Positions 2,146 through 14,375 of a stretch of DNA of 15,627 nt are shown one piece after another. The DNA is taken from NCBI GenBank assembly GCA_002413355.1, contig DHWV01000106.1:1-15627 (forward strand), written 5' to 3'. Made by a program: the position numbers and the translations under genes. A model generated the notes under the pieces. The model saw nothing but the letters and a program-made list of their open reading frames with translations, was not told where the DNA came from and did not search any database. Each line of letters begins with the position of its first letter. Position 1 is the stretch's first letter. This DNA is from Desulfobulbaceae bacterium UBA5173. Its GTDB lineage: Bacteria; Desulfobacterota; Desulfobulbia; Desulfobulbales; Desulfobulbaceae.

Positions 2146-2185
2146 GGCCGCAGTCGGAGATTTCCGGCTGCGGCCTTTTTGTTTT
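2146..2185. terminator. Bidirectional rho-independent terminator (ends atpE on +; can also end the mini-CRISPR transcript on -)
   Basis: 13-bp GC-rich stem GGCCGCAGTCGGA / TCCGGCTGCGGCC with one G:T pair (2146-2175). It is followed by TTTTTGTTTT on the + strand. On the - strand the same hairpin is followed by TTTTCT (2145->2140). Confidence 0.85.
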
Positions 2186-2190
2186 GGCGT

Positions 2191-2267
2191 GTACGCTTCT
2201 GCCTGTTCGGCAGTTAACATCTCGGCATTAAATATATTTTTCTAAGCTGACCTGTGCGGCAGTATAA
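2191..2267 (-). CRISPR. Mini-CRISPR (CreA/CreR-like): degenerate I-F repeat psiR1, 20-nt spacer, degenerate I-F repeat psiR2
   Basis: Minus strand reads TTATACTGCCGCACAGGTCAG|CTTAGAAA (2267->2239), then AATATATTTAATGCCGAGAT (2238->2219), then GTTAACTGCCGAACAGGCAG|AAGCGTAC (2218->2191). Compared with the canonical I-F repeat GTTCACTGCCGTATAGGCAG|CTAAGAAA: psiR2 keeps 17/20 of the Cas6f hairpin part but only 2/8 of the handle. psiR1 keeps 7/8 of the 8-nt 5'-handle and has a 5-bp stem with one bulged T. This is the complementary decay expected when only one mature crRNA is needed. Confidence 0.55.
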
Positions 2268-2273
2268 AAACAC

Positions 2274-2302
2274 ACTATAGTTATTTTTTCTTTTTTTTGC
2301 AA
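2274..2302 (-). promoter_or_regulatory. Candidate sigma70 promoter driving the mini-CRISPR
   Basis: Minus strand: TTGCAA (2302->2297), 17-nt A-rich spacer, TATAGT (2279->2274). The predicted start near 2267 coincides with the first base of psiR1. Confidence 0.4.
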
Positions 2303-2320
2303 CATTCGGCTTCGTGGAGC

Positions 2321-2348
2321 TTGACAGCGAAAAAATGCCGAGTATATT
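2321..2348 (+). promoter_or_regulatory. Candidate sigma70 promoter of the leader/csy operon, back-to-back with the mini-CRISPR promoter
   Basis: Consensus TTGACA (2321-2326), 16-nt spacer, TATATT (2343-2348). Predicted start about 2355. Confidence 0.45.
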
Positions 2349-2369
2349 GGTAGAGAGCAAGATTTTTTT

Positions 2370-2391
2370 ATTTCTACTTTAAATATATTGG
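2370..2391 (-). promoter_or_regulatory. Predicted Cascade/crRNA binding site (partial protospacer with CC PAM) in the early transcribed region
   Basis: Minus strand 2391->2370 reads CC|AATATATTTAAAGTAGAAAT. The mini-CRISPR spacer is AATATATTTAATGCCGAGAT. Positions 1-11 are identical and 16/20 match overall. Mismatches are at 12, 14, 15 and 18. The 5'-CC PAM is in the position used by type I-F. Confidence 0.5.
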
Positions 2392-2591
2392 ATGGAAACT
2401 ATGAACATCAGCATATCCCTTCATGCGACAACTGCCGAAATTGTGACATTTCTCATCATGTTACCTCTACTTGCAAGGCGGGCTGCTTCGGCACTGATCG
2501 TACTTGGCAGTGAACTTGCGGACACAGGCTATTGGATACGAAGAACCATGACGCAGCAGAACTGTATCTGCTAAGAAGGAGGGGGATTTCT

Positions 2592-3971
2592 ATGGAACAA
2601 GAAAGTCTGTCGGCAAAAATAGCTGGTTATATTTCGGAGCGGGCGAAACCGAAGCTGGAGGAGCTGACGAAAAAGGCGGAGAAGGAGCGCAAAAAGGCTG
2701 CGGACAGCCCGGAAGCCTTAGCCGAGGTAGAAGCGGCATTGGCGGAAGAAGAAATTGCGCTGAAGATCAAATTTGAGCCAGCCGTGTGGCTAACCGACGC
2801 GGCTCGACGGGCTGGGCAGATTCAATTCACAACCCATCCGATCAAATTCACCAATTCGCAGGCGAAGGGCGCAAGTAGCTGCTATGCTGAGTCAGGGCCG
2901 CAGCAGCCAGCGGAGATGCTTGAAGGTTCGCTGATTAGCACGGCTTCGCTGGCAAAACTTGCAATTGATGTGGATGGCAACGCTGCTGCCTTGGATGTGG
3001 CCGCGCTGCTGCAATTGGAGCAGGACGGCAGAATGCTGCTGAAATATATCCAGGCGCAGGATGCGGAACCGCTCCGGCCTTTTGCCAAAAGCGACGAGCA
3101 GCTTGCCGATTGGCTGGAGGGTTTCGGTCAGGCGGTGTCAGTCGCCGCACCGAGTTCTCACAGTCTGGCCAAGCAGCTATATTTTCCGGTCGGCGATGGC
3201 CAGTATCATCTGCTTTCACCGCTTTTTTCCTCGTCCTTGGCGCAGGCAGTGCATGAGCGGATTCATAGCTCCCGCTTTTCCGACAAGGCCAAGGAGGTGC
3301 GCAAAGCCAAGCGGGAGGAGAAATTCCACGAATCGCCGACTGTGGATTACCCCAACACGGCGGTGATGACCTTTGGCGGCACCAAGCCGCAGAATGTCAG
3401 CCAGCTCAACAGCAGGCGCGGCGGCAAGGTCTATCTTCTCTCCTGCGCCCCGCCGGTGTGGGAAAACCGCAATCAGCCGCCACTGGAGGAAACAGTCTTC
3501 AGCCCTCGGCAGTTTAGTTATTATGCCCGCAAAGAGGTCTATGCGCTGCATAGCCATCTAAAAGAGTGCTTGGCTAAATCAAAAAACGTCGCAATCCGAG
3601 ATCGGCGGGCTGAACTGGTTGACAGCATTATAGACAGGTTGACAATGTACGCCGCTGAAATTCAACACAACTTTGAAGCAGGATGGAGCGGCAAGACTGA
3701 ATGCAGACTCATCCACGTTGAACAGCTTTGGCTTGATCCACAGCGAGGCTTAACCGATGCGGAATTCAAGGTGGAGCGGGAGCGAAACGAATGGCAGGAA
3801 GAAATTGCTGCCCGCTTTGCCCGCTGGTTGAACAGGCAGCTGGAGGGAAAGCTGTGGGAGGAAGAAGAGGGAAGAAAGCTGAACGTGGGTGATCCTGGAA
3901 TCAGGGAATGGAAGAGCCTATTGGAAAAGAAGTTGCGGCTGCTTAAAGACGACTTGGAGGCGTTTGCATGA
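2592..3971 (+). CDS. cas8f: Type I-F CRISPR-associated large subunit Cas8f (Csy1)
   Basis: 459 aa. Blocks shared with P. aeruginosa Csy1: WLTDAARRAGQIQF, GNAAALDV, SHSLAKQLYFP, YHLLSPLF, FGGTKPQNVSQLN, VEQLWLDP. Strong SD AAGGAGGGGG (2575-2585) before ATG 2592, so ATG 2592 is preferred over the ORF-track start at 2532. Confidence 0.95.
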   Translation: MEQESLSAKIAGYISERAKPKLEELTKKAEKERKKAADSPEALAEVEAALAEEEIALKIKFEPAVWLTDAARRAGQIQFTTHPIKFTNSQAKGASSCYAESGPQQPAEMLEGSLISTASLAKLAIDVDGNAAALDVAALLQLEQDGRMLLKYIQAQDAEPLRPFAKSDEQLADWLEGFGQAVSVAAPSSHSLAKQLYFPVGDGQYHLLSPLFSSSLAQAVHERIHSSRFSDKAKEVRKAKREEKFHESPTVDYPNTAVMTFGGTKPQNVSQLNSRRGGKVYLLSCAPPVWENRNQPPLEETVFSPRQFSYYARKEVYALHSHLKECLAKSKNVAIRDRRAELVDSIIDRLTMYAAEIQHNFEAGWSGKTECRLIHVEQLWLDPQRGLTDAEFKVERERNEWQEEIAARFARWLNRQLEGKLWEEEEGRKLNVGDPGIREWKSLLEKKLRLLKDDLEAFA

Positions 3972-4921
3972 TTAACGACGAGCAAGGACTGCTGATTCTG
4001 CGGCGCATCAGGGTTGAAAACGCCAATGCCGTGGCTGGGCTGACATGGGGCTTTCCGGCGGTGTCCGCCTTTCTCGGCTTCACTCATGCCCTGTCGCGTA
4101 AACTGCCGCCTGAATTGGGGCTGAAGCTGACCGGTTGTGGCATCGTCTGCCATGAGCATGAGGCGCAGGCGTATCAGCCCAAAAGCTGGAGCGATTATGT
4201 CTTCTCCCTCAGCCGCAACCCGCTGACTAAAACCGGCGAAACCGCTTCCTTCATCGAAGAAGGCCGGATGCGGATGACCGTGTCGCTGCTGATTCCTTTC
4301 ACAGGAAATTTAGACAGTCTGTACGCGGACGAAAAAGAAGCCTTGCCTGAGACCTTCAAGAATCTTGTTCTCAGCCAGCGGCTTGCAGGCGGCACTATAT
4401 TAGACCTCAAAAAACCAGAAAGAAAGATGTTTCCAGAAAACTGGGAGGAACGGCAGAAATTCAATCGCGAACAGCTGCGGCAGCTTCTGCCCGGCTTTGC
4501 CTTAGTGCAGCGGGCTGATCTACTCGCCGAGCATCTCAGCGAATTAAGGAAGGAGACACCGGAGCCCGAGCCGATGGATGCTTGGTTGGATTTTGCCGCC
4601 CTCAAACACAAGGCGGAACAGCCGGAGGAAGGTAAAGAAAAAGCGGAATGGCGATACGTGCCAAAGCCGGGCGGCGGCTGGCTGGTGCCGCTTACGGTGG
4701 GGTATCGGGGCATTTCTGAGCTGCACGAGCCGGGCCGGGTGGCTCGCGTCCGTGATGCGCAAACTCCGTTCCGTTTTGCCGAGGCGGTGTACAGCGTGGG
4801 CGAATGGCTCAGTCCACACCGGGCAGAAAAGCTGGATGATCTGATCTGGCGGTATGAAACTGAGCCGGAAAGCGGCTGGTATCTGTGTCAAAACGGGTAC
4901 AAAGAAGTGTCGAACGATTAA
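3968..4921 (+). CDS. cas5f: Type I-F CRISPR-associated protein Cas5f (Csy2)
   Basis: 317 aa. Csy2-like blocks: ENANAVAGLTWGFP, GCGIVCHEHEAQ, SRNPLTKTGETASFIEEGR, QRLAGGTIL, LLPGFALV, VGEWLSPHR. ATGA overlap with the cas8f stop. Confidence 0.9.
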   Translation: MINDEQGLLILRRIRVENANAVAGLTWGFPAVSAFLGFTHALSRKLPPELGLKLTGCGIVCHEHEAQAYQPKSWSDYVFSLSRNPLTKTGETASFIEEGRMRMTVSLLIPFTGNLDSLYADEKEALPETFKNLVLSQRLAGGTILDLKKPERKMFPENWEERQKFNREQLRQLLPGFALVQRADLLAEHLSELRKETPEPEPMDAWLDFAALKHKAEQPEEGKEKAEWRYVPKPGGGWLVPLTVGYRGISELHEPGRVARVRDAQTPFRFAEAVYSVGEWLSPHRAEKLDDLIWRYETEPESGWYLCQNGYKEVSND

Positions 4922-4957
4922 AGGCAATTCAAAAAACACCTTTTCAGGAGAACAATC

Positions 4958-5983
4958 ATGGCCGTGAAAACAGCATCTGTTTTGGCATTTGAACGCAAGC
5001 TGGCAAATTCTGACGCGCTGCTCCATGCAGGCAAGTGGGAGAATCGGGATAAGAATGAGAGCTGGCAGCCGGTCAGCATTCAGGGAAAATCTGTCCGAGG
5101 CACTATCTCCAACCGGATGAAAATCAAGGTGAAAGAGGGTGAAAAAAAACATGATCCGGCAAAATTGGACGCTGAGATAGATGTTCCCAACCTCCAAACC
5201 GTTGATGTGGCTGCGCTGCCCTTTGACGCAGACACACTGCGGGTCAGCTTCAGCCTGCGGGTGCTGGGCAATCTCTCCCAACCCTCAGCCTGCAACAATC
5301 AGGATTATCAGAATGCCTTGGCCACTGTGATTGACGGCTACGCGCAGGAGCATGGCTTTAGGGAATTGGCTGCCCGTTATGCTGCCAACCTTGCCAATGG
5401 CCGTTTCCTTTGGCGCAACCGGGTTGGGGCTGAAGCAGTGGCAGTGCGGGTGCGGCAGATGCAGGGCGGCAAGGAGACAAGGGTGTGGACATTTGACGGC
5501 CTCGGTTTTGATTTGCGGAATTTTGCCGCGCCGACTGCGGAACTCAAGAGCTTGGCCGAGGTAATCGCCTCTGGATTGTCCGGCAGCACGTTTGTTTTGT
5601 TAGAGGTGGAGGGCTTTGTCCGGCTTGGCGCAGGGCAGGAGGTCTTTCCGTCCCAAGAGCTGATTCTCGACAAAAGTAGTTCCAAGAGCAAAACTCTCTA
5701 CCAAGTAAGCGGCGTGGCGGCCATGCACTCGCAGAAGATCGGCAATGCCCTCCGCACCATTGATACGTGGCATCCTGCTGCGGAGGAAATCGGGCCGATT
5801 GCGGTGGAGCCGTATGGTTCAGTCACCAACCGGGGCAAAGCATACCGTCAACCGGGCGACAAAATGGATTTTTACAGCATCTTTGATGCTTGGATGGTGA
5901 ACAATAAGGTTCCGCCGGTAGAGCAGCAGCATTACGTGATGGCCGTGCTGATCCGGGGCGGCGTGTTTGGAAAAGGGGAATGA
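4958..5983 (+). CDS. cas7f: Type I-F CRISPR-associated backbone protein Cas7f (Csy3)
   Basis: 341 aa, collinear with P. aeruginosa Csy3: [117 protein letters not shown]. Confidence 0.95.
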
Positions 5984-6552
5984 GCATGGATCATTATCTT
6001 GAACTTCGCCTGCGGCAAGACCCGGAGTTTCTCGAAACTGTGCTGATGAACGCTCTCTTTGCCAAACTGCACCGTGCGTTGTGCGAGGCAGGGCAGGGCG
6101 CGATAGGAGTCAGCTTTCCCAATGCGGACAAAAACTTGGGCGATAAACTCCGCCTGCACGGCAGCAAGGAGGCGTTGGAGCGGCTGATGGCCTTGAACTG
6201 GCTGATTGGAATGCGGGATCATCTCAGTATATTCGAGCTGCGTCCCGTGCCTGCGAACTGTCAGCACAGAATAGTGCAGCGGGTGCAGGCCAAAAGCAGC
6301 GCGGAGCGGCTGTATCGGCGTTCCGCGCGCAATGGCCGCTTGAGCGAGAGCGAGGCAGAGAAAAAGACAGCGGCGGCAAAGGAGAAAGAGAAGAAGGCGC
6401 TGCTTAAGCTGCCTTTTGTTCAGCTCAGGAGCGCGTCCACCGGCGAGCAATTCCGGCTCTTCATCAAGCAGGGCGCGCCAATGGACAGGCCGCAGCCGGG
6501 TCGTTTTTCCGATTACGGCCTGAGCAGTACAGCCACGGTGCCGTGGTTCTGA
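5980..6552 (+). CDS. cas6f: Type I-F CRISPR endoribonuclease Cas6f (Csy4)
   Basis: [15 protein letters not shown]..., [33 protein letters not shown] and C-terminal VPWF match P. aeruginosa Csy4 end to end. ATG 5980 overlaps the cas7f stop (ATGA). ATG 5986 (MDHYL) is an equally plausible start. Confidence 0.95.
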
Positions 6553-6565
6553 ATGACGAACGCAG

Positions 6566-8245
6566 TCAGCCTAAAAATGCTTCCGTCTGCGGCTGACTGT
6601 CACGTTCTGCGGCAAGACTGAAGGCATCAAGCACATTGCTTGCAATAAACAGCAGCACCATCGGATAAGCGGAATGTAACGCCCGTTGAATTTCTGAATA
6701 CGAGGTGATGGTCAGCAGTGTGAGGATGAATGCGATGGAGCAGAGGCCTGCCAAGGCAGCCGCACTGGCTGCCGTGAACATGCGCAGCTCTCGTTTTCTG
6801 AGGCTGATGACAAGACGGAAAAGAAAAAACGCCAGCCCGGCCAGAAACAGCAACGGCATCATCTTTTTGTATGCTGCGCCGATGTTATTCAGTATCCTCA
6901 CCTTTTCCTTGTTCAGTTGGCGGTGATAGTCTGGATAGGAATCAAGCACCTTCACTTTATTTGGTAGCAGCTTTTCCCTCGTGACGGTCTCATACATCAG
7001 CATGGTGCTTGTAAGGCCGCGACTGGTCATTCCTTGCGTGCTGGCAGAAAATTCTCTAAATGAAACGGCTTTCTTTAGCACGGCAAAAAAGGTCGGCAGC
7101 AGCAGCTTGTTGTATTCTTGATGCCATGACGGAACCAAGCTGGTCACTCTGGGCTGGCACTCTAGCTTGCCTGTCGCGCAGGCTTGATCAATTTCCCGTC
7201 CAACAGCGGCGTAAAATTGCAGCGCGTCCGCTCCGCTTTTTCCATGACCGGCATAGACGACCGCGTCACGTAAAGCCCAGATGAAAAATGCCGCCGGGAT
7301 GTCATCGCTTCCTGCCAGATTTTTCCAGTTCTGTCCAACCGCTCCCTCAAGATACGGCTTCAGTTCGTTGAAGGCCGGACTGACCGCATAGGCTTTTTCC
7401 CGGACATCTTGGACAACTGGATAAAACTGCCGCCATTTGTCTGATTTGATGCGGAGCAGGCCACCGTAGGCAGATTCAAACTCATCTGTTTTCAGCTCAA
7501 TAGTGGAAAAAACGCCATAGTGTTTGTAATTGATGCTTTTCAGGGTGTAATTGACTGTCAGCAGAATCAGCCAAGGCAGCAGATACAGGCCAAGCAAGGT
7601 AGCTGATCGGGTAGGCTCCGCCCGTCGGAGCAGCAGCAGACTGGTCAGCATGAGCAGTAGCAGCGTGGGGAGTATCCAGACTGACTCCTCGCGGGTGTTC
7701 CAGAAGGCGGCAAGAGCAATGCCTGCCCCGGCGGACCATGCTGCCGCCCGTTTCCAAGAAATGCTAGAATGGACATGAATGCCGAGGTGGCAGGAAAAGA
7801 CCAGCAGACCCAAGGACAGATAAACAAATTCCCTGAAAATACGGCCGATCTGCGGATAATTGAATGAAAAGGGATTGAGCAGCAGAAAAAGGAAAAGCAG
7901 CGGCAGGAGCCATTTTTTGCGCACCGCCGGATAAATAGCCCAAACAGCGGTCAGCGCGGCGAACCAGTACAGTAGCTGCTGGGCGGCGAGCAAAGGAATG
8001 TTCAGCCAATGCGCACAAGCGATGAACAGCGGATAAAACGGCCCTTTGATCATCACGAGCTGGTCATATGGGCCGAGCCAATTGCCGCTCAAGAGATTGT
8101 GCGCCTGCGTGATGAACAGCTTGTCATCATGAGGAGTCTCTGTGACCATCACATAATGGCCGCTGACCAGCCACAATTTTGCCGCCAGCAGGAGCAGGGC
8201 AAAATACAAAAGATTCCTTTTGGAAAACAAACTGTCCATCATCAT
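6566..8245 (-). CDS. Polytopic membrane protein, GT-C-fold (ArnT/PMT-like) glycosyltransferase-like. About 8 N-terminal TM segments, a ~230-aa extracytoplasmic domain and 3 C-terminal TM segments
   Basis: Long uninterrupted ORF. Hydrophobic segment pattern with an acidic HDD motif in the first loop after TM1. AGGA precedes ATG 8245 (MMMDSLF...). The ORF-track start at 8275 is a TTG. The function call rests on architecture only. Confidence 0.6.
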   Translation of the reverse strand: MMMDSLFSKRNLLYFALLLLAAKLWLVSGHYVMVTETPHDDKLFITQAHNLLSGNWLGPYDQLVMIKGPFYPLFIACAHWLNIPLLAAQQLLYWFAALTAVWAIYPAVRKKWLLPLLFLFLLLNPFSFNYPQIGRIFREFVYLSLGLLVFSCHLGIHVHSSISWKRAAAWSAGAGIALAAFWNTREESVWILPTLLLLMLTSLLLLRRAEPTRSATLLGLYLLPWLILLTVNYTLKSINYKHYGVFSTIELKTDEFESAYGGLLRIKSDKWRQFYPVVQDVREKAYAVSPAFNELKPYLEGAVGQNWKNLAGSDDIPAAFFIWALRDAVVYAGHGKSGADALQFYAAVGREIDQACATGKLECQPRVTSLVPSWHQEYNKLLLPTFFAVLKKAVSFREFSASTQGMTSRGLTSTMLMYETVTREKLLPNKVKVLDSYPDYHRQLNKEKVRILNNIGAAYKKMMPLLFLAGLAFFLFRLVISLRKRELRMFTAASAAALAGLCSIAFILTLLTITSYSEIQRALHSAYPMVLLFIASNVLDAFSLAAERDSQPQTEAFLG

Positions 8246-9308: not shown

Positions 9309-10205
9309 TCAGTTGTTTTTCTGGATAAGTTTCCAGATATCCGTGAACAAAAAATGATCAAATGTTTTAATGTGCTCTTGTAACATAGCCTCTGAGCACA
9401 TATTTGGCCGAATGTCGCAGTAATATACCCCGTCAAGAGGAGTCAGTTTGATGGTGTAGCCTTTGAAATGTCCGGCAAGAAATGTGGTGTTGATGCCGTA
9501 TTGACCTTCTTTTCCTTTTCGCTGCACATCATTCAGGAACACAGCAAAATGGGGCGTATTTGTGTCAGTCAGTCTACTGTAAAGAAACTTATCGATAAAT
9601 ATTTTGTCTATCCTGTCTTTGCTTGATGTCTTTACAGAACCAATAGCTTTCGTTTCTCCTGCTGATCGAAGAATCAAGTCATGTTGATAATTCATACTGA
9701 AAGCTGTTTTTCCGTCTATGTTGACGGGAACAGAAATCGTGCCTGCTGTGACATCAACACCTGTTTCAGCAATGATCAGCCTGATGAACCGTTCAAACAG
9801 ATCGCCGTTGATCTTTCTCGCCGTATTAGATTCCTTTGCCGGTAAAGCATCAAGAGTCGCGCCGATGCACTGCTGCGCCGTGTAGATCACCCGATTAACA
9901 ACAGCTCGGTTTTCCCTGTTGTCACATCCCCTGATTTCCCTGATGACTTTGAGAAATATGAGACTGGCCTGTTGAAACTCCTCGTAATCATACATGAGGC
10001 TGGCATTGATCGGTCGTGTCACATTATACGTTCCGTCCTGCTTGTACTGAAAGAATTGATAGTTATTTTCGTTTCTTGACACGATTACTGCTTGCAAGTT
10101 TGTCTTGATGAATTCAAGATAATCAAGCGCGAAATGGATGTAATTTCCAGGCGTGCAGAACAACTCTTTGTTACAGGCGGCAACAACAAGGTTTCTGAGA
10201 TTCAT
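9309..10205 (-). CDS. Putative type II restriction endonuclease (PD-(D/E)xK-like), partner of the upstream methyltransferase
   Basis: 298 aa. Its start overlaps the methyltransferase stop (ATGA at 10202-10205). Candidate catalytic signature ...HDLILRS...AIGSVKTSSKDR... Same AT-rich composition as the MTase gene. No family recognised from memory. Confidence 0.55.
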   Translation of the reverse strand: MNLRNLVVAACNKELFCTPGNYIHFALDYLEFIKTNLQAVIVSRNENNYQFFQYKQDGTYNVTRPINASLMYDYEEFQQASLIFLKVIREIRGCDNRENRAVVNRVIYTAQQCIGATLDALPAKESNTARKINGDLFERFIRLIIAETGVDVTAGTISVPVNIDGKTAFSMNYQHDLILRSAGETKAIGSVKTSSKDRIDKIFIDKFLYSRLTDTNTPHFAVFLNDVQRKGKEGQYGINTTFLAGHFKGYTIKLTPLDGVYYCDIRPNMCSEAMLQEHIKTFDHFLFTDIWKLIQKNN

Positions 10206-11125
10206 CTGATAGAATTCCTTCTTTTTTCGTTAGCCCGGTCAAAGGCTATCCATTCTTCTTTGGTCTTTCGCTGCACATGCTCAAGCCGCTCCACAGCCCA
10301 GTCATTGTATTTGGCTTCAACTTCACAGCCAAGCCATCTTCTACCTAATTGCTCGGCTGCAACCAGTGTTGTTCCTGAACCTGAGAACGGATCAAGCACT
10401 CTGTCGCCTTCGTTTGATGAAGCAAGAATAAATTTGCGCACTAGTTCTTCAGGTTTCTGCGCAGGATGCGGTGTTTTCTCCCCCATGCCGTTGCATGTTG
10501 TCGGCACTTCTATCACATCCTTTGGTTTTGCCCCTTTCTCATGAGGCACCCATATATCTTTCCTCTTGCCACTGTTTCCGTACTGGCTTGATTCAGCCTG
10601 CGGATGTGATGGGTATTTCAATGTATGGTTTCCGTAAGAAATACGAACATCATCAATATTGAATGTCTGTTTCTTGCTCTTTCGCAGGTGGAGCAGGCTT
10701 TCGTGGGAGCGTCCCCAGTCGTTGCCAAGATTTGCTTTATTTTTATAATGCCAGACAATCCATCTGCACGACGCGAAATACTGCATCGAAGGATGCTTCA
10801 GATCAGCAAGAATTTCCGAAAAACCGCAAACGTATAACGTCCCGACTGGTTTCAAAATTCTTGCCGCCTCTTTGATCCACTGCATGGACCATTCAATATA
10901 CTGCTCCTGACTCTCGAACTTGTCCCATTCCGCTTTGTTAATGTTGTACGGCGGATCAGCAAAAATCAAGTCAATGCTCTCTGCGGCTAACGACCTCAGC
11001 CAGCTCATGCTGTCTCCTTGATACAGTGATCCGTTCTGCTGTTTATACAGCAAGCTGAACGGCATCTCCTTGACGACGCTGTGCCTTTTGCCCCGTTCCT
11101 GTCGTTCAAACAGCAGTTGCCGCAT
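10202..11125 (-). CDS. Beta-class DNA methyltransferase, probably N6-adenine specific
   Basis: Motif IV IFADPPYNI lies N-terminal to motif I VLDPFSGSGTT. This circular permutation is typical of beta-class N6A/N4C enzymes, and DPPY favours N6-adenine. An alternative start at 11065 (MPFSLLY) is possible. Confidence 0.9.
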   Translation of the reverse strand: MRQLLFERQERGKRHSVVKEMPFSLLYKQQNGSLYQGDSMSWLRSLAAESIDLIFADPPYNINKAEWDKFESQEQYIEWSMQWIKEAARILKPVGTLYVCGFSEILADLKHPSMQYFASCRWIVWHYKNKANLGNDWGRSHESLLHLRKSKKQTFNIDDVRISYGNHTLKYPSHPQAESSQYGNSGKRKDIWVPHEKGAKPKDVIEVPTTCNGMGEKTPHPAQKPEELVRKFILASSNEGDRVLDPFSGSGTTLVAAEQLGRRWLGCEVEAKYNDWAVERLEHVQRKTKEEWIAFDRANEKRRNSIR

Positions 11126-13017: not shown

Positions 13018-13061
13018 CCTTGCTCATCAAAATGCAACAGAGGAAAAGGAGAACAAAGGCG

Positions 13062-14375
13062 ATGAAGAAGAAAATCGTGCTGTCAGCCGCTGTCTTAGCC
13101 GCGCTGACCGTCACAGCTCCAGCAGGCTCGGTCAACGCCGCAAGCATCCTCAGAACAGTGGGGACTCATCCGGTTTCACGCCCGCTGGCAACGGTGAATG
13201 ATTTGCAGGCCATGATGCAAAACATGGGCAGGGACATTCAGGCTGGCATGGCGGCGGCGGGCAATGCCGGACTGTTTCCGCTGGTGCAGGCGCAGATCAT
13301 TCAGCAGCCTGCGCGGATCGCCATTGTTGACTACCTGCCAGGCCAGCACATGGACTGGATGCTGTTCCGGCACAACGGCAGAGGCCGGGTCAAGGTGGCG
13401 CGGGATGTGACGTGGAGTGGCAATGCTCCGCTCCAAGTTTTCGAGTTTGCAGTGGACAAAGACGGGCAGCGTTACACGTTCGCCGTGCCGCTCCAATGCG
13501 GCAATCTGGCCCTGAAAGAATTTGGCCCGGCACCTATGCCGGTGCAGGTGGCTCCTGTCATTCAGCAGGTGCAAGTTCCTGTTCCCGGCCCGACGGTCTA
13601 TGTCCCTAAAGAAGTGATCAAATACGTGGACAGACCGGTTGAAGTGGTGCGGCAGATTCAAGTCCCAGTGCCGGGTCCGACCGTTTATGTTGACCGGCCG
13701 GTAGTGAAAGAAGTGGTGCGGCAGGTGCAGGTTCCTGTTCCCGGCCCGACGGTCTATGTCCCTAAAGAAGTGATCAAATATGTGGACAAAGAGGTGGTGA
13801 AGGAAGTGCAGGTTCCTGGCCCGACCAGGACGGTGGTCAAACGAGTCACTGTGCAGGGGCCAGCACGAACGGTCTATGTTGACCGGCCGGTGGTGAAAGA
13901 GGCAAAATGCTGCGAATCACCCTTCCATTTTATCGCTGACGGCGGCTACCTGCATCAGCAGGAGGAGGCGGACTACGGCCTTGGCAGGTTGGGCGTGGAG
14001 TATGTTTTCAATCCGCAGTTTTCTTTCTTGGCTCTGGCAGGCGGTGCAGCCAAGGCAGGCGGCGATGCCGGAGCAGATGCCTTTGTGCTTGATTTTCTCG
14101 TCCAGTACAACCTGTTTCAATGTTCCCTCAACGGCTCAACGTGGTCGCCTTTCTTTATTGGTGTCGGTGTCGGGGCATGGATGACCAACGGCGATGACAA
14201 CGTGAAGAGCGAGGACAGCGGTGCGGATTTGATCGCCGAGGTTGGCCTCCGGCTCTTCGGCAATCCGTTCACCACCAGCGCGTCCATTTTTGTTGAAGGT
14301 CGGGCGGCGACTGACGAGCTGGATGAGCTGAATGAATACGGCCGCATCGGAGGCGGCTTGCGCTTCAGGTTCTAA
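13062..14375 (+). CDS. Secreted outer-membrane protein: signal peptide, VPVPGPTVYV-type tandem repeats, C-terminal beta-barrel-like domain ending in Phe
   Basis: MKKKIVLSAAVLAALTVTAPAGSVNA|AS signal peptide. Central repeats (QVPVPGPTVYV-P/D-KEV/RPV...). C-terminus ...GRIGGGLRFRF has the aromatic terminal residue typical of OMP barrels. AAGGAG at 13046-13051. Confidence 0.8.
   Translation: MKKKIVLSAAVLAALTVTAPAGSVNAASILRTVGTHPVSRPLATVNDLQAMMQNMGRDIQAGMAAAGNAGLFPLVQAQIIQQPARIAIVDYLPGQHMDWMLFRHNGRGRVKVARDVTWSGNAPLQVFEFAVDKDGQRYTFAVPLQCGNLALKEFGPAPMPVQVAPVIQQVQVPVPGPTVYVPKEVIKYVDRPVEVVRQIQVPVPGPTVYVDRPVVKEVVRQVQVPVPGPTVYVPKEVIKYVDKEVVKEVQVPGPTRTVVKRVTVQGPARTVYVDRPVVKEAKCCESPFHFIADGGYLHQQEEADYGLGRLGVEYVFNPQFSFLALAGGAAKAGGDAGADAFVLDFLVQYNLFQCSLNGSTWSPFFIGVGVGAWMTNGDDNVKSEDSGADLIAEVGLRLFGNPFTTSASIFVEGRAATDELDELNEYGRIGGGLRFRF
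13566..13632 (+). repeat. Intragenic direct repeat, copy 1 (67 nt)
   Basis: CAGGTGCAAGTTCCTGTTCCCGGCCCGACGGTCTATGTCCCTAAAGAAGTGATCAAATACGTGGACA. Matches copy 2 at 65/67 positions, 156 nt (52 codons) downstream. Confidence 0.9.
13722..13788 (+). repeat. Intragenic direct repeat, copy 2 (67 nt)
   Basis: Differs from copy 1 only at 13730 (A->G) and 13781 (C->T), both synonymous third positions. Confidence 0.9.

Follow-up and report, generated by a model that had tools for sequence, protein, structure and literature searches.

A candidate regulatory mini-array beside the type I-F csy operon of a Desulfobulbaceae bacterium

Type I-F mini-arrays and the Desulfobulbaceae locus

In type I-F1 CRISPR systems, mini-arrays with shortened spacers address CC-flanked targets on the cas8 side, with mismatches at guide positions 6 and 12 (Shmakov et al., 'Widespread CRISPR repeat-like RNA regulatory elements', 10.1101/2023.03.03.530964). 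Experiments on mini-arrays built in this way show that Cascade by itself suffices for repression of the targeted promoter (10.1101/2023.03.03.530964; 10.1101/2024.01.05.574328), and validation in P. aeruginosa YL84 found Cascade and the mini-array RNA sufficient for repression (10.1101/2023.03.03.530964). Here we analyse a stretch of 15,627 nucleotides (nt) from Desulfobulbaceae bacterium UBA5173 (assembly GCA_002413355.1, contig DHWV01000106.1, a 32-kb metagenome contig), referred to throughout as the window. Its minus-strand unit at 2191-2267, about 325 nt upstream of cas8f, very likely constitutes a regulatory mini-array resembling a CRISPR RNA (crRNA) gene, of the CreR/CreA class, through which a type I-F Csy system autorepresses its own operon. 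The element is a new example of a described class and the mechanism is not new. With it, the type I-F regulatory mini-arrays on record come to include an uncultured lineage of the Desulfobulbaceae and cable-bacteria group, and its co-variation of spacer and target is unusually clear. Less ordinary are a csy cassette that has no nuclease or array nearby and a small protein under predicted CRISPR control.

As in the type I-F1 mini-arrays of Shmakov et al., two repeat-like units (psiR1 and psiR2) enclose one shortened spacer (psiS), the element is divergent from the Cascade operon and a CC-flanked target is found on the cas8 side. The window mini-array differs from them in adjoining atpE rather than lying between cas3 and cas8, with no cas3 near, in a target placed 22-43 nt beyond the -10 element, within the transcribed leader, and in the conserved small open reading frame (ORF) that precedes cas8f. 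Autorepression by CreR is established for subtypes I-B, I-E and V-A (10.1101/2023.03.10.532045). The likeness to CreR covers a degenerate mini-CRISPR beside a cas operon, partial pairing at the operon's own promoter that depends on a protospacer-adjacent motif (PAM), and negative feedback, whereas the window system belongs to subtype I-F, has a 20-nt guide, and its repression is a prediction.

Within type I-F, the toxins that CreA controls, whether RNA or protein, are located ahead of csy1 (10.1101/2024.01.05.574328), and Csy-CreA represses the promoter of the small gene before csy1 in both CreA-CreP and CreA-CreT systems (10.1101/2024.01.05.574328; 10.1101/2024.10.29.618823). With the CreA-CreP pair of Acinetobacter baylyi ADP1 (CrePA) and the CreA-CreT pairs of P. 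aeruginosa and Acinetobacter the window shares a type I-F mini-array that is divergent from the promoter of a small gene before csy1. By family searches, which did not directly compare CreT RNA sequences, the 57-residue protein encoded there is unrelated to CreP (103 residues, with a KilAC domain) and to the RNA toxins, and unlike these it has distant homologues in non-CRISPR settings. A similar spacer length, about 17-21 nt, is found in viral Cracr RNAs of type I-F (10.1101/2024.10.29.618823), but the window element is chromosomal, syntenic in relatives and adjoins the operon that it would target.

A sequence-only reading of the window had called the 20-nt spacer unusual. Short psiS are already published for type I-F mini-arrays (10.1101/2023.03.03.530964; 10.1101/2024.10.29.618823), with a range of 17-27 nt that affects sensitivity to AcrIF24 and with guides of at most 22 nt making Csy complexes AcrIF24-resistant (10.1101/2024.10.29.618823). 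In the family survey described below, 19-20 nt is the commonest guide length.

Anatomy, target and conservation of the mini-array

The sequences and coordinates first proposed for psiR1, the spacer, psiR2 and the target all read back correctly (Table 1). Arrays of the closest relatives (sister loci L005, L006 and L007) use the canonical repeat GTTCACTGCCGCACAGGCAGCTTAGAAA, with which the psiR1 handle CTTAGAAA agrees at 8/8 positions and the first 20 nt of psiR2 at 18/20, including a perfect 5-bp stem. Preservation of handle and hairpin was rightly claimed, and the figures against the relatives' repeat are higher than the 7/8 and 17/20 given at first. The handle is retained upstream, in psiR1, and the Cas6f hairpin downstream, in psiR2; the repeat halves that have decayed are those dispensable for a mature guide. 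The locus thereby has the make-up of a type I-F regulatory mini-array, two repeat-like units around one spacer beside effector genes. A canonical CRISPR array of at least three near-identical repeats with 32-nt spacers is not what is found: the two units are mutually divergent and enclose a single 20-nt spacer, and a repeat finder run on the window detected no further I-F repeats or arrays.

Only two sigma-70-like sites were found in 2050-2650, and they are the two promoters that had been named from the letters, one ahead of psiR1 and one ahead of the small ORF and csy1-4. Folding of the predicted minus-strand transcript gives three hairpins (z = -5.2): that of psiR1, which is bulged, that of psiR2, which is clean, and that of atpE, with UUUUCU behind it. 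This last hairpin is probably a two-way terminator, serving atpE on the plus strand and, on the minus strand, the mini-array transcript with its UUUUCU tail. For the earlier proposal that the mini-array ends here, the fold is favourable, hairpin and tail both being in place, but the terminator scan did not flag the hairpin.

Spacer and target agree at 16/20 positions with a complete seed (11/11) and mismatches at 12, 14, 15 and 18, so that the leader between the small-ORF promoter at 2321-2348 and cas8f contains a partial, seed-complete match at a CC PAM. Re-reading the site confirmed the PAM, the 11-nt perfect seed, the overall identity and the distance of 22-43 nt past the -10 element. The combination of CC and the 11-nt seed, with up to one mismatch allowed, occurs once in the window and in 0/200 shuffles. 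Taken with the conservation and co-variation described below, this shows that the match of mini-array and target is not attributable to chance. Spacer positions 10-18 (AATGCCGAG, 2220-2228) also form an exact 9-nt inverted repeat of 2334-2342, which lies between the -35 and -10 elements of the csy promoter. Site 2334-2342 was considered as a second target and rejected, as it lacks both a CC PAM and a seed match and L007 has nothing equivalent; the inverted repeat is probably due to chance or a trace of the origin of the spacer.

The nearest named relatives of the window are in the Desulfobulbaceae and cable-bacteria group, Candidatus Electronema by Cas8f and Candidatus Electrothrix by a 569-residue hypothetical protein encoded beyond the csy genes. 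A close relative (L003, 95% Cas8f identity) has 0 differences from the window in 210 nt that span the terminator, the mini-array and both promoters, while divergence is ~3% in neighbouring genes and 8-19% in the intergenic DNA alongside. In Ca. Electronema halotolerans (L007, 66% Cas8f identity) a mini-array again lies upstream of a small ORF and cas8f; its spacer ATATTCGTTATGCTGAAATG matches CC followed by ATATTAGTTATATTGAAATG, with mismatches at 6, 12 and 13. A third mini-array precedes a small ORF in L170, a short contig that ends soon after that ORF, where spacer ATACTGTTTTATGTCGAAAC matches CC followed by ATACTTTTTTAAGTTGAAAT with mismatches at 6, 12, 15 and 20. Between any two of these three loci, 4-8 positions have changed in both spacer and target and still match, namely 2, 3, 4 and 10 for the window and L170, 2, 3, 4, 7, 11, 16, 19 and 20 for the window and L007, and 4, 7, 10, 11, 16 and 19 for L170 and L007. 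Guide and target co-vary, with the sixth positions left free. The setting is likewise shared: a strong operon promoter stands just upstream of the target (TTGACA-17-TATAAT in L007, TTGACA-17-TATTAT in L170), the mini-array promoter has an equivalent in both (TTGTAC-17-TATAAT in L007 and a TATAAT ahead of psiR1 in L170), and in both the PAM overlaps the ribosome-binding site of the homologous small ORF. In a lineage with 78% Cas8f identity (L004 and L169) the available sequence ends where psiR1 would begin and the mini-array is unreadable.

A survey of 166 related loci, in each of which the 1 kb preceding cas8f was scanned, provides independent and purely comparative support for three rules, namely dependence on a CC PAM, same-strand geometry and free sixth positions. 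It yielded 39 minus-strand mini-arrays with 34 distinct spacers, loci of Yersinia pestis and Serratia among them, of which 28 distinct mini-arrays were analysed after six loci with artefactual targets had been dropped (L067, L148 and the L154 group, where the scored 'target' overlapped the mini-array itself). A CC-flanked site matching at least 9/10 scored seed positions is present within 1 kb for 27/28, compared with 0-1/28 for each of the other 15 flanking dinucleotides and 1/560 for shuffled spacers, and in 27/28 the mini-array and its best site share a strand. Mismatches concentrate at positions 6 (20/27), 12 (23/27) and 18 (16/26), with any other position mismatched in at most 6 of 27; these three are left unpaired in type I-F geometry as published (10.1101/2023.03.03.530964). 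Guide lengths range from 13 to 34 nt, many of the chromosomal mini-arrays carrying spacers of 18-22 nt, and 22/28 fall within 1 nt of 14, 20, 26 or 32 (binomial P = 0.008) under the rule that psiR2 begins 5 nt before its stem, which suggests that guide lengths follow the 6-nt step of Cas7f.

Two side observations came from the surveyed loci. In L088 (about 1260-1400) the guide is only about 14 nt long (TATGAAATATCAAG) and the cas8f leader has two tandem sites of CC followed by TATGATATAT. Three enterobacterial type I-F loci, L016 (9609-10001), L023 (9601-10001) and L031 from Yersinia pestis (9594-10001), have a hydrophobic ORF of 52-61 residues between target and csy1, and these ORFs (MKQGW.../MMKRGLF...) are unrelated to that of the window.

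Table 1. Features of the mini-array, its predicted target and the csy operon in the window
Feature	Position	Strand	Details
psiR1	2239-2267	-	TTATACTGCCGCACAGGTCAGCTTAGAAA, composed of TTATACTGCCGCACAGGtCAG and CTTAGAAA; canonical 8-nt 5' handle; hairpin 3' arm with 1-nt insertion
Spacer (psiS), 20-nt guide	2219-2238	-	AATATATTTAATGCCGAGAT
psiR2	2191-2218	-	GTTAACTGCCGAACAGGCAGAAGCGTAC, composed of GTTAACTGCCGAACAGGCAG and AAGCGTAC; Cas6f hairpin intact (CTGCC/GGCAG), 3' eight nt degenerated
Mini-array promoter	2302-2274	-	TTGCAA-17-TATAGT, 9/12; predicted start at first bases of psiR1
Target	2391->2370	-	PAM CC (2391-2390) and protospacer AATATATTTAAAGTAGAAAT (2389-2370)
Small-ORF-csy1-4 promoter	2321-2348	+	TTGACA-16-TATATT, 11/12; divergent from, and back-to-back with, mini-array promoter
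atpE hairpin	2146..2175		12-pair stem, 6-nt loop; T-runs after it on both strands; from sequence and minus-strand RNA fold
57-residue ORF	2401..2574	+	First gene of putatively repressed transcript; stop 17 nt before cas8f start
cas8f (csy1)	2592..3971	+	Pfam Cas_Csy1, E = 1e-130
cas5f (csy2)	3968..4921	+	Pfam Cas_Csy2
cas7f (csy3)	4958..5983	+	Pfam Cas_Csy3
cas6f (csy4)	5980..6552	+	Pfam Cas_Csy4; expected endoribonuclease for psiR1 and psiR2

Proposed autorepression and its alternatives

Our analysis favours a model in which a degenerate mini-CRISPR guides the Csy complex to repress the csy leader without cleavage, as the sequence-only reading had it; the comparative evidence, which supports this strongly, consists of the synteny, the co-variation, the pattern of PAM, strand and mismatches, and the conservation in L003. 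We infer transcription, processing, complex size and repression as follows. The mini-array would be transcribed from its own promoter and end at the atpE hairpin. Cas6f would cut after the psiR1 and psiR2 hairpins to release an RNA of ~48 nt made up of the 8-nt CUUAGAAA handle, the 20-nt guide and a 20-nt hairpin. This guide RNA would assemble a shortened Csy complex with four Cas7f subunits rather than six, by the 6-nt rule (32 - 2x6 = 20). The complex would recognise the CC PAM and pair with the plus (non-template) strand at 2370-2389, in the initially transcribed region, and once bound would block early transcription of the small ORF, cas8f, cas5f, cas7f and cas6f, such that production of the Csy proteins, and of the small protein with them, is limited by the Csy proteins themselves. 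No cleavage would be expected because the pairing is short and partial, and moreover no cas3 is nearby.

Several points weigh against this model. The target is in the transcribed leader and not over the -35 and -10 elements, so repression would need a roadblock effect, and the third segment of the guide, 13-17, carries two mismatches. The U-tract behind the atpE hairpin read in reverse is weak (UUUUCU). The 1-nt bulge of psiR1 in the Cas6f hairpin might impair cleavage. An insertion in the 3' arm of this hairpin is nevertheless found in three lineages, as GGtCAG in the window (2239-2267), GGCtAG in L007 (9670-9697) and GGCcAG in L170 (about 1262-1290) where the canonical repeat has GGCAG, and because it has been kept in all three the bulge is probably tolerated or useful.

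The first gene past the target bears on what the repression would be for. Between the window and L003 the 57-residue ORF has one I-to-V replacement and three silent events, including AGT to TCT (Ser to Ser), and an upstream ATG at 2392 is lost in L003; homologues retain length and position. Judged by these comparisons the ORF is a real, conserved protein, and it would be one placed under predicted CRISPR control. Its borderline membrane-helix score means that it possibly spans the membrane, and its tail has the conserved pattern GG..L..GWW(R/K). Searches of Pfam, NCBIfam and PADLOC returned no match and no KilAC-type domain, and the AlphaFold model is a single long helix (predicted local distance difference test score, pLDDT, 65) too weak for a fold search. 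A profile of the ORF found 7 matches among 1.84 billion cluster representatives, two of them weak matches outside CRISPR loci (L171 1736-1918 and L172 941-1159) that share the motif AAW.VVGG.L.D.GWW. The first precedes a STAND/AAA_16-HTH ATPase gene and the second adjoins tatC, and no mini-array was seen in the few hundred bases read upstream of each. The promoter scan found no promoter between the ORF and cas8f, and the sole terminator-like match of the terminator scan, 2609-2627, is inside cas8f and not in the gap. With no promoter between them and a gap of only 17 nt, the ORF and csy1-4 appear to be one transcription unit. Autorepression of the csy genes would therefore follow from repression of the ORF whether or not its product is toxic.

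On the best-surviving alternative, an addiction of the CreTA or CrePA type, the mini-array RNA would mainly be an antitoxin (CreA) that silences a toxic 57-residue protein, and loss or inhibition of Csy would arrest the cell. The molecular mechanism is that of the favoured model and the purpose alone differs, so the two are not mutually exclusive; as the main purpose of the element we regard addiction as unlikely. It would suit the nature of the first gene past the target, whose small product is conserved, scores as a borderline membrane helix and ends in a tail rich in Trp and Arg, and A. baylyi offers a precedent in which a protein toxin between mini-array and csy1 is under CreA control (10.1101/2024.01.05.574328). 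The Serratia and Yersinia loci have another small hydrophobic ORF at the same place, and addiction would explain why a csy cassette with no local cas3 or array persists in two diverged lineages. Against this, toxicity of the 57-residue protein is conjecture only, the ORF resembles neither known CreP proteins nor other toxin families, and the distant homologues in L171 and L172 are in non-CRISPR contexts where no mini-array was seen. As the ORF is apparently co-transcribed with csy1-4, derepression would raise the repressor too. Moreover, in many family members (L009, L010, L024, L097 and L100) target and cas8f have no ORF between them, so that plain autorepression is the common state.

That the unit is a functionless relic of a former CRISPR array, with a leader match due to chance or to an old self-acquired spacer, is very improbable. 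Expected of a relic are the degeneracy of both repeats, the single spacer and the lack of cas1, cas3 or an array close by. However, decay has not been random but has spared exactly the psiR1 handle and the psiR2 hairpin, spacer and target co-vary across relatives, and the element is perfectly conserved between variable flanks. The CC PAM and the mismatch pattern at 6, 12 and 18 are family-wide and not expected of relics. Hardest of all to credit is a Cracr-type anti-CRISPR RNA of a mobile element, stranded in the chromosome and silencing the host Csy for the benefit of that element: although the 20-nt spacer is within the 17-21 nt typical of viral Cracr RNAs and outside the 23-27 nt of bacterial CreA and CreR (10.1101/2024.10.29.618823), many surveyed chromosomal mini-arrays are equally short, the unit holds the same position beside small ORF and cas8f in diverged chromosomal relatives, its upstream neighbour is the atp operon with no phage or plasmid genes flanking, and its exact handle-plus-seed pattern has 0 matches in 2.9 million viral contigs.

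The csy cassette and its surroundings

The four csy genes give full-length Pfam matches (4/4). The ratio of nonsynonymous to synonymous substitution (dN/dS) is 0.28-0.33 for cas8f and about 0.3 for cas8f and cas5f alike. These measures indicate intact csy genes on which purifying selection acts. Cas6f aligns with solved Csy4 structures over its full length and retains the KLH motif, whose His we take to be the catalytic residue, as in the P. aeruginosa enzyme.

The source contig outside the window was covered by gene lists, and from 2.6 kb upstream to about 20 kb downstream no cas3 or cas1 was found; within the window there is no cas1, cas2-3 or canonical array. The locus is consequently not a complete type I-F1 locus, in which cas1, cas2-3 and an array stand beside csy1-4. 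Neither does it have the make-up of a type I-F3 CRISPR-associated transposon, cas8f and cas5f being separate and no transposition genes having been found in the window. In the sister loci L005, L006 and L007, csy1-4 are followed by a gene for about 1000 residues and then an array; the gene product has Cas3-like domains in L005 and L006, and L007 has a same-sized ORF of 996 residues. The window cassette, comprising mini-array, small ORF and csy1-4 (2190-6566), is instead placed between atpE and the conserved Desulfobulbaceae gene for 569 residues. The same junction is seen in L173 (6830-7409), where cas6f (72% identical) abuts the homologue of that gene (78% identical), and the lack of cas3 and an array after cas6f is hence common to a diverged lineage.

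The cassette is a candidate for the natural retention of a Csy effector that has a regulatory guide but no nuclease, array or adaptation genes close by. The cas3 gene and arrays may lie elsewhere in the genome. Another possibility is domestication of the Csy complex, which would then act independently as a transcriptional regulator. A further-reaching proposal is that the cassette is an immune-dead remnant, having lost cas3, cas1 and the array, and is kept in Desulfobulbaceae resembling cable bacteria since its sole guide restrains a small membrane protein encoded in the leader. This would be a CreTA-like addiction that has outlived immunity and a new family of CRISPR-repressed protein toxins, and we consider it doubtful.

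Upstream of the mini-array, genes of the ATP-synthase operon (ATPase_gene1 family, atpI, atpB and atpE) occupy the plus strand up to 2118. On the 3' side of the csy operon the minus strand encodes the conserved 569-residue hypothetical protein, a CxxCxxCC protein, and a type II restriction enzyme with a methyltransferase. The restriction enzyme (298 residues) and the N6/N4 methyltransferase (307 residues), at 9309-11125 on the minus strand, are not among the called genes beside the CxxCxxCC gene of L173, and as L173 has no such pair there the two genes look like a local insertion. A scan of the window at the Rfam gathering threshold gave no match. An ORF for 451 residues at 13020-14375 has no family match and contains a 102-nt direct repeat in duplicate (13565-13822; copies 82% identical and 156 nt apart) along with shorter repeats, which suggests that it encodes an internally repetitive protein.

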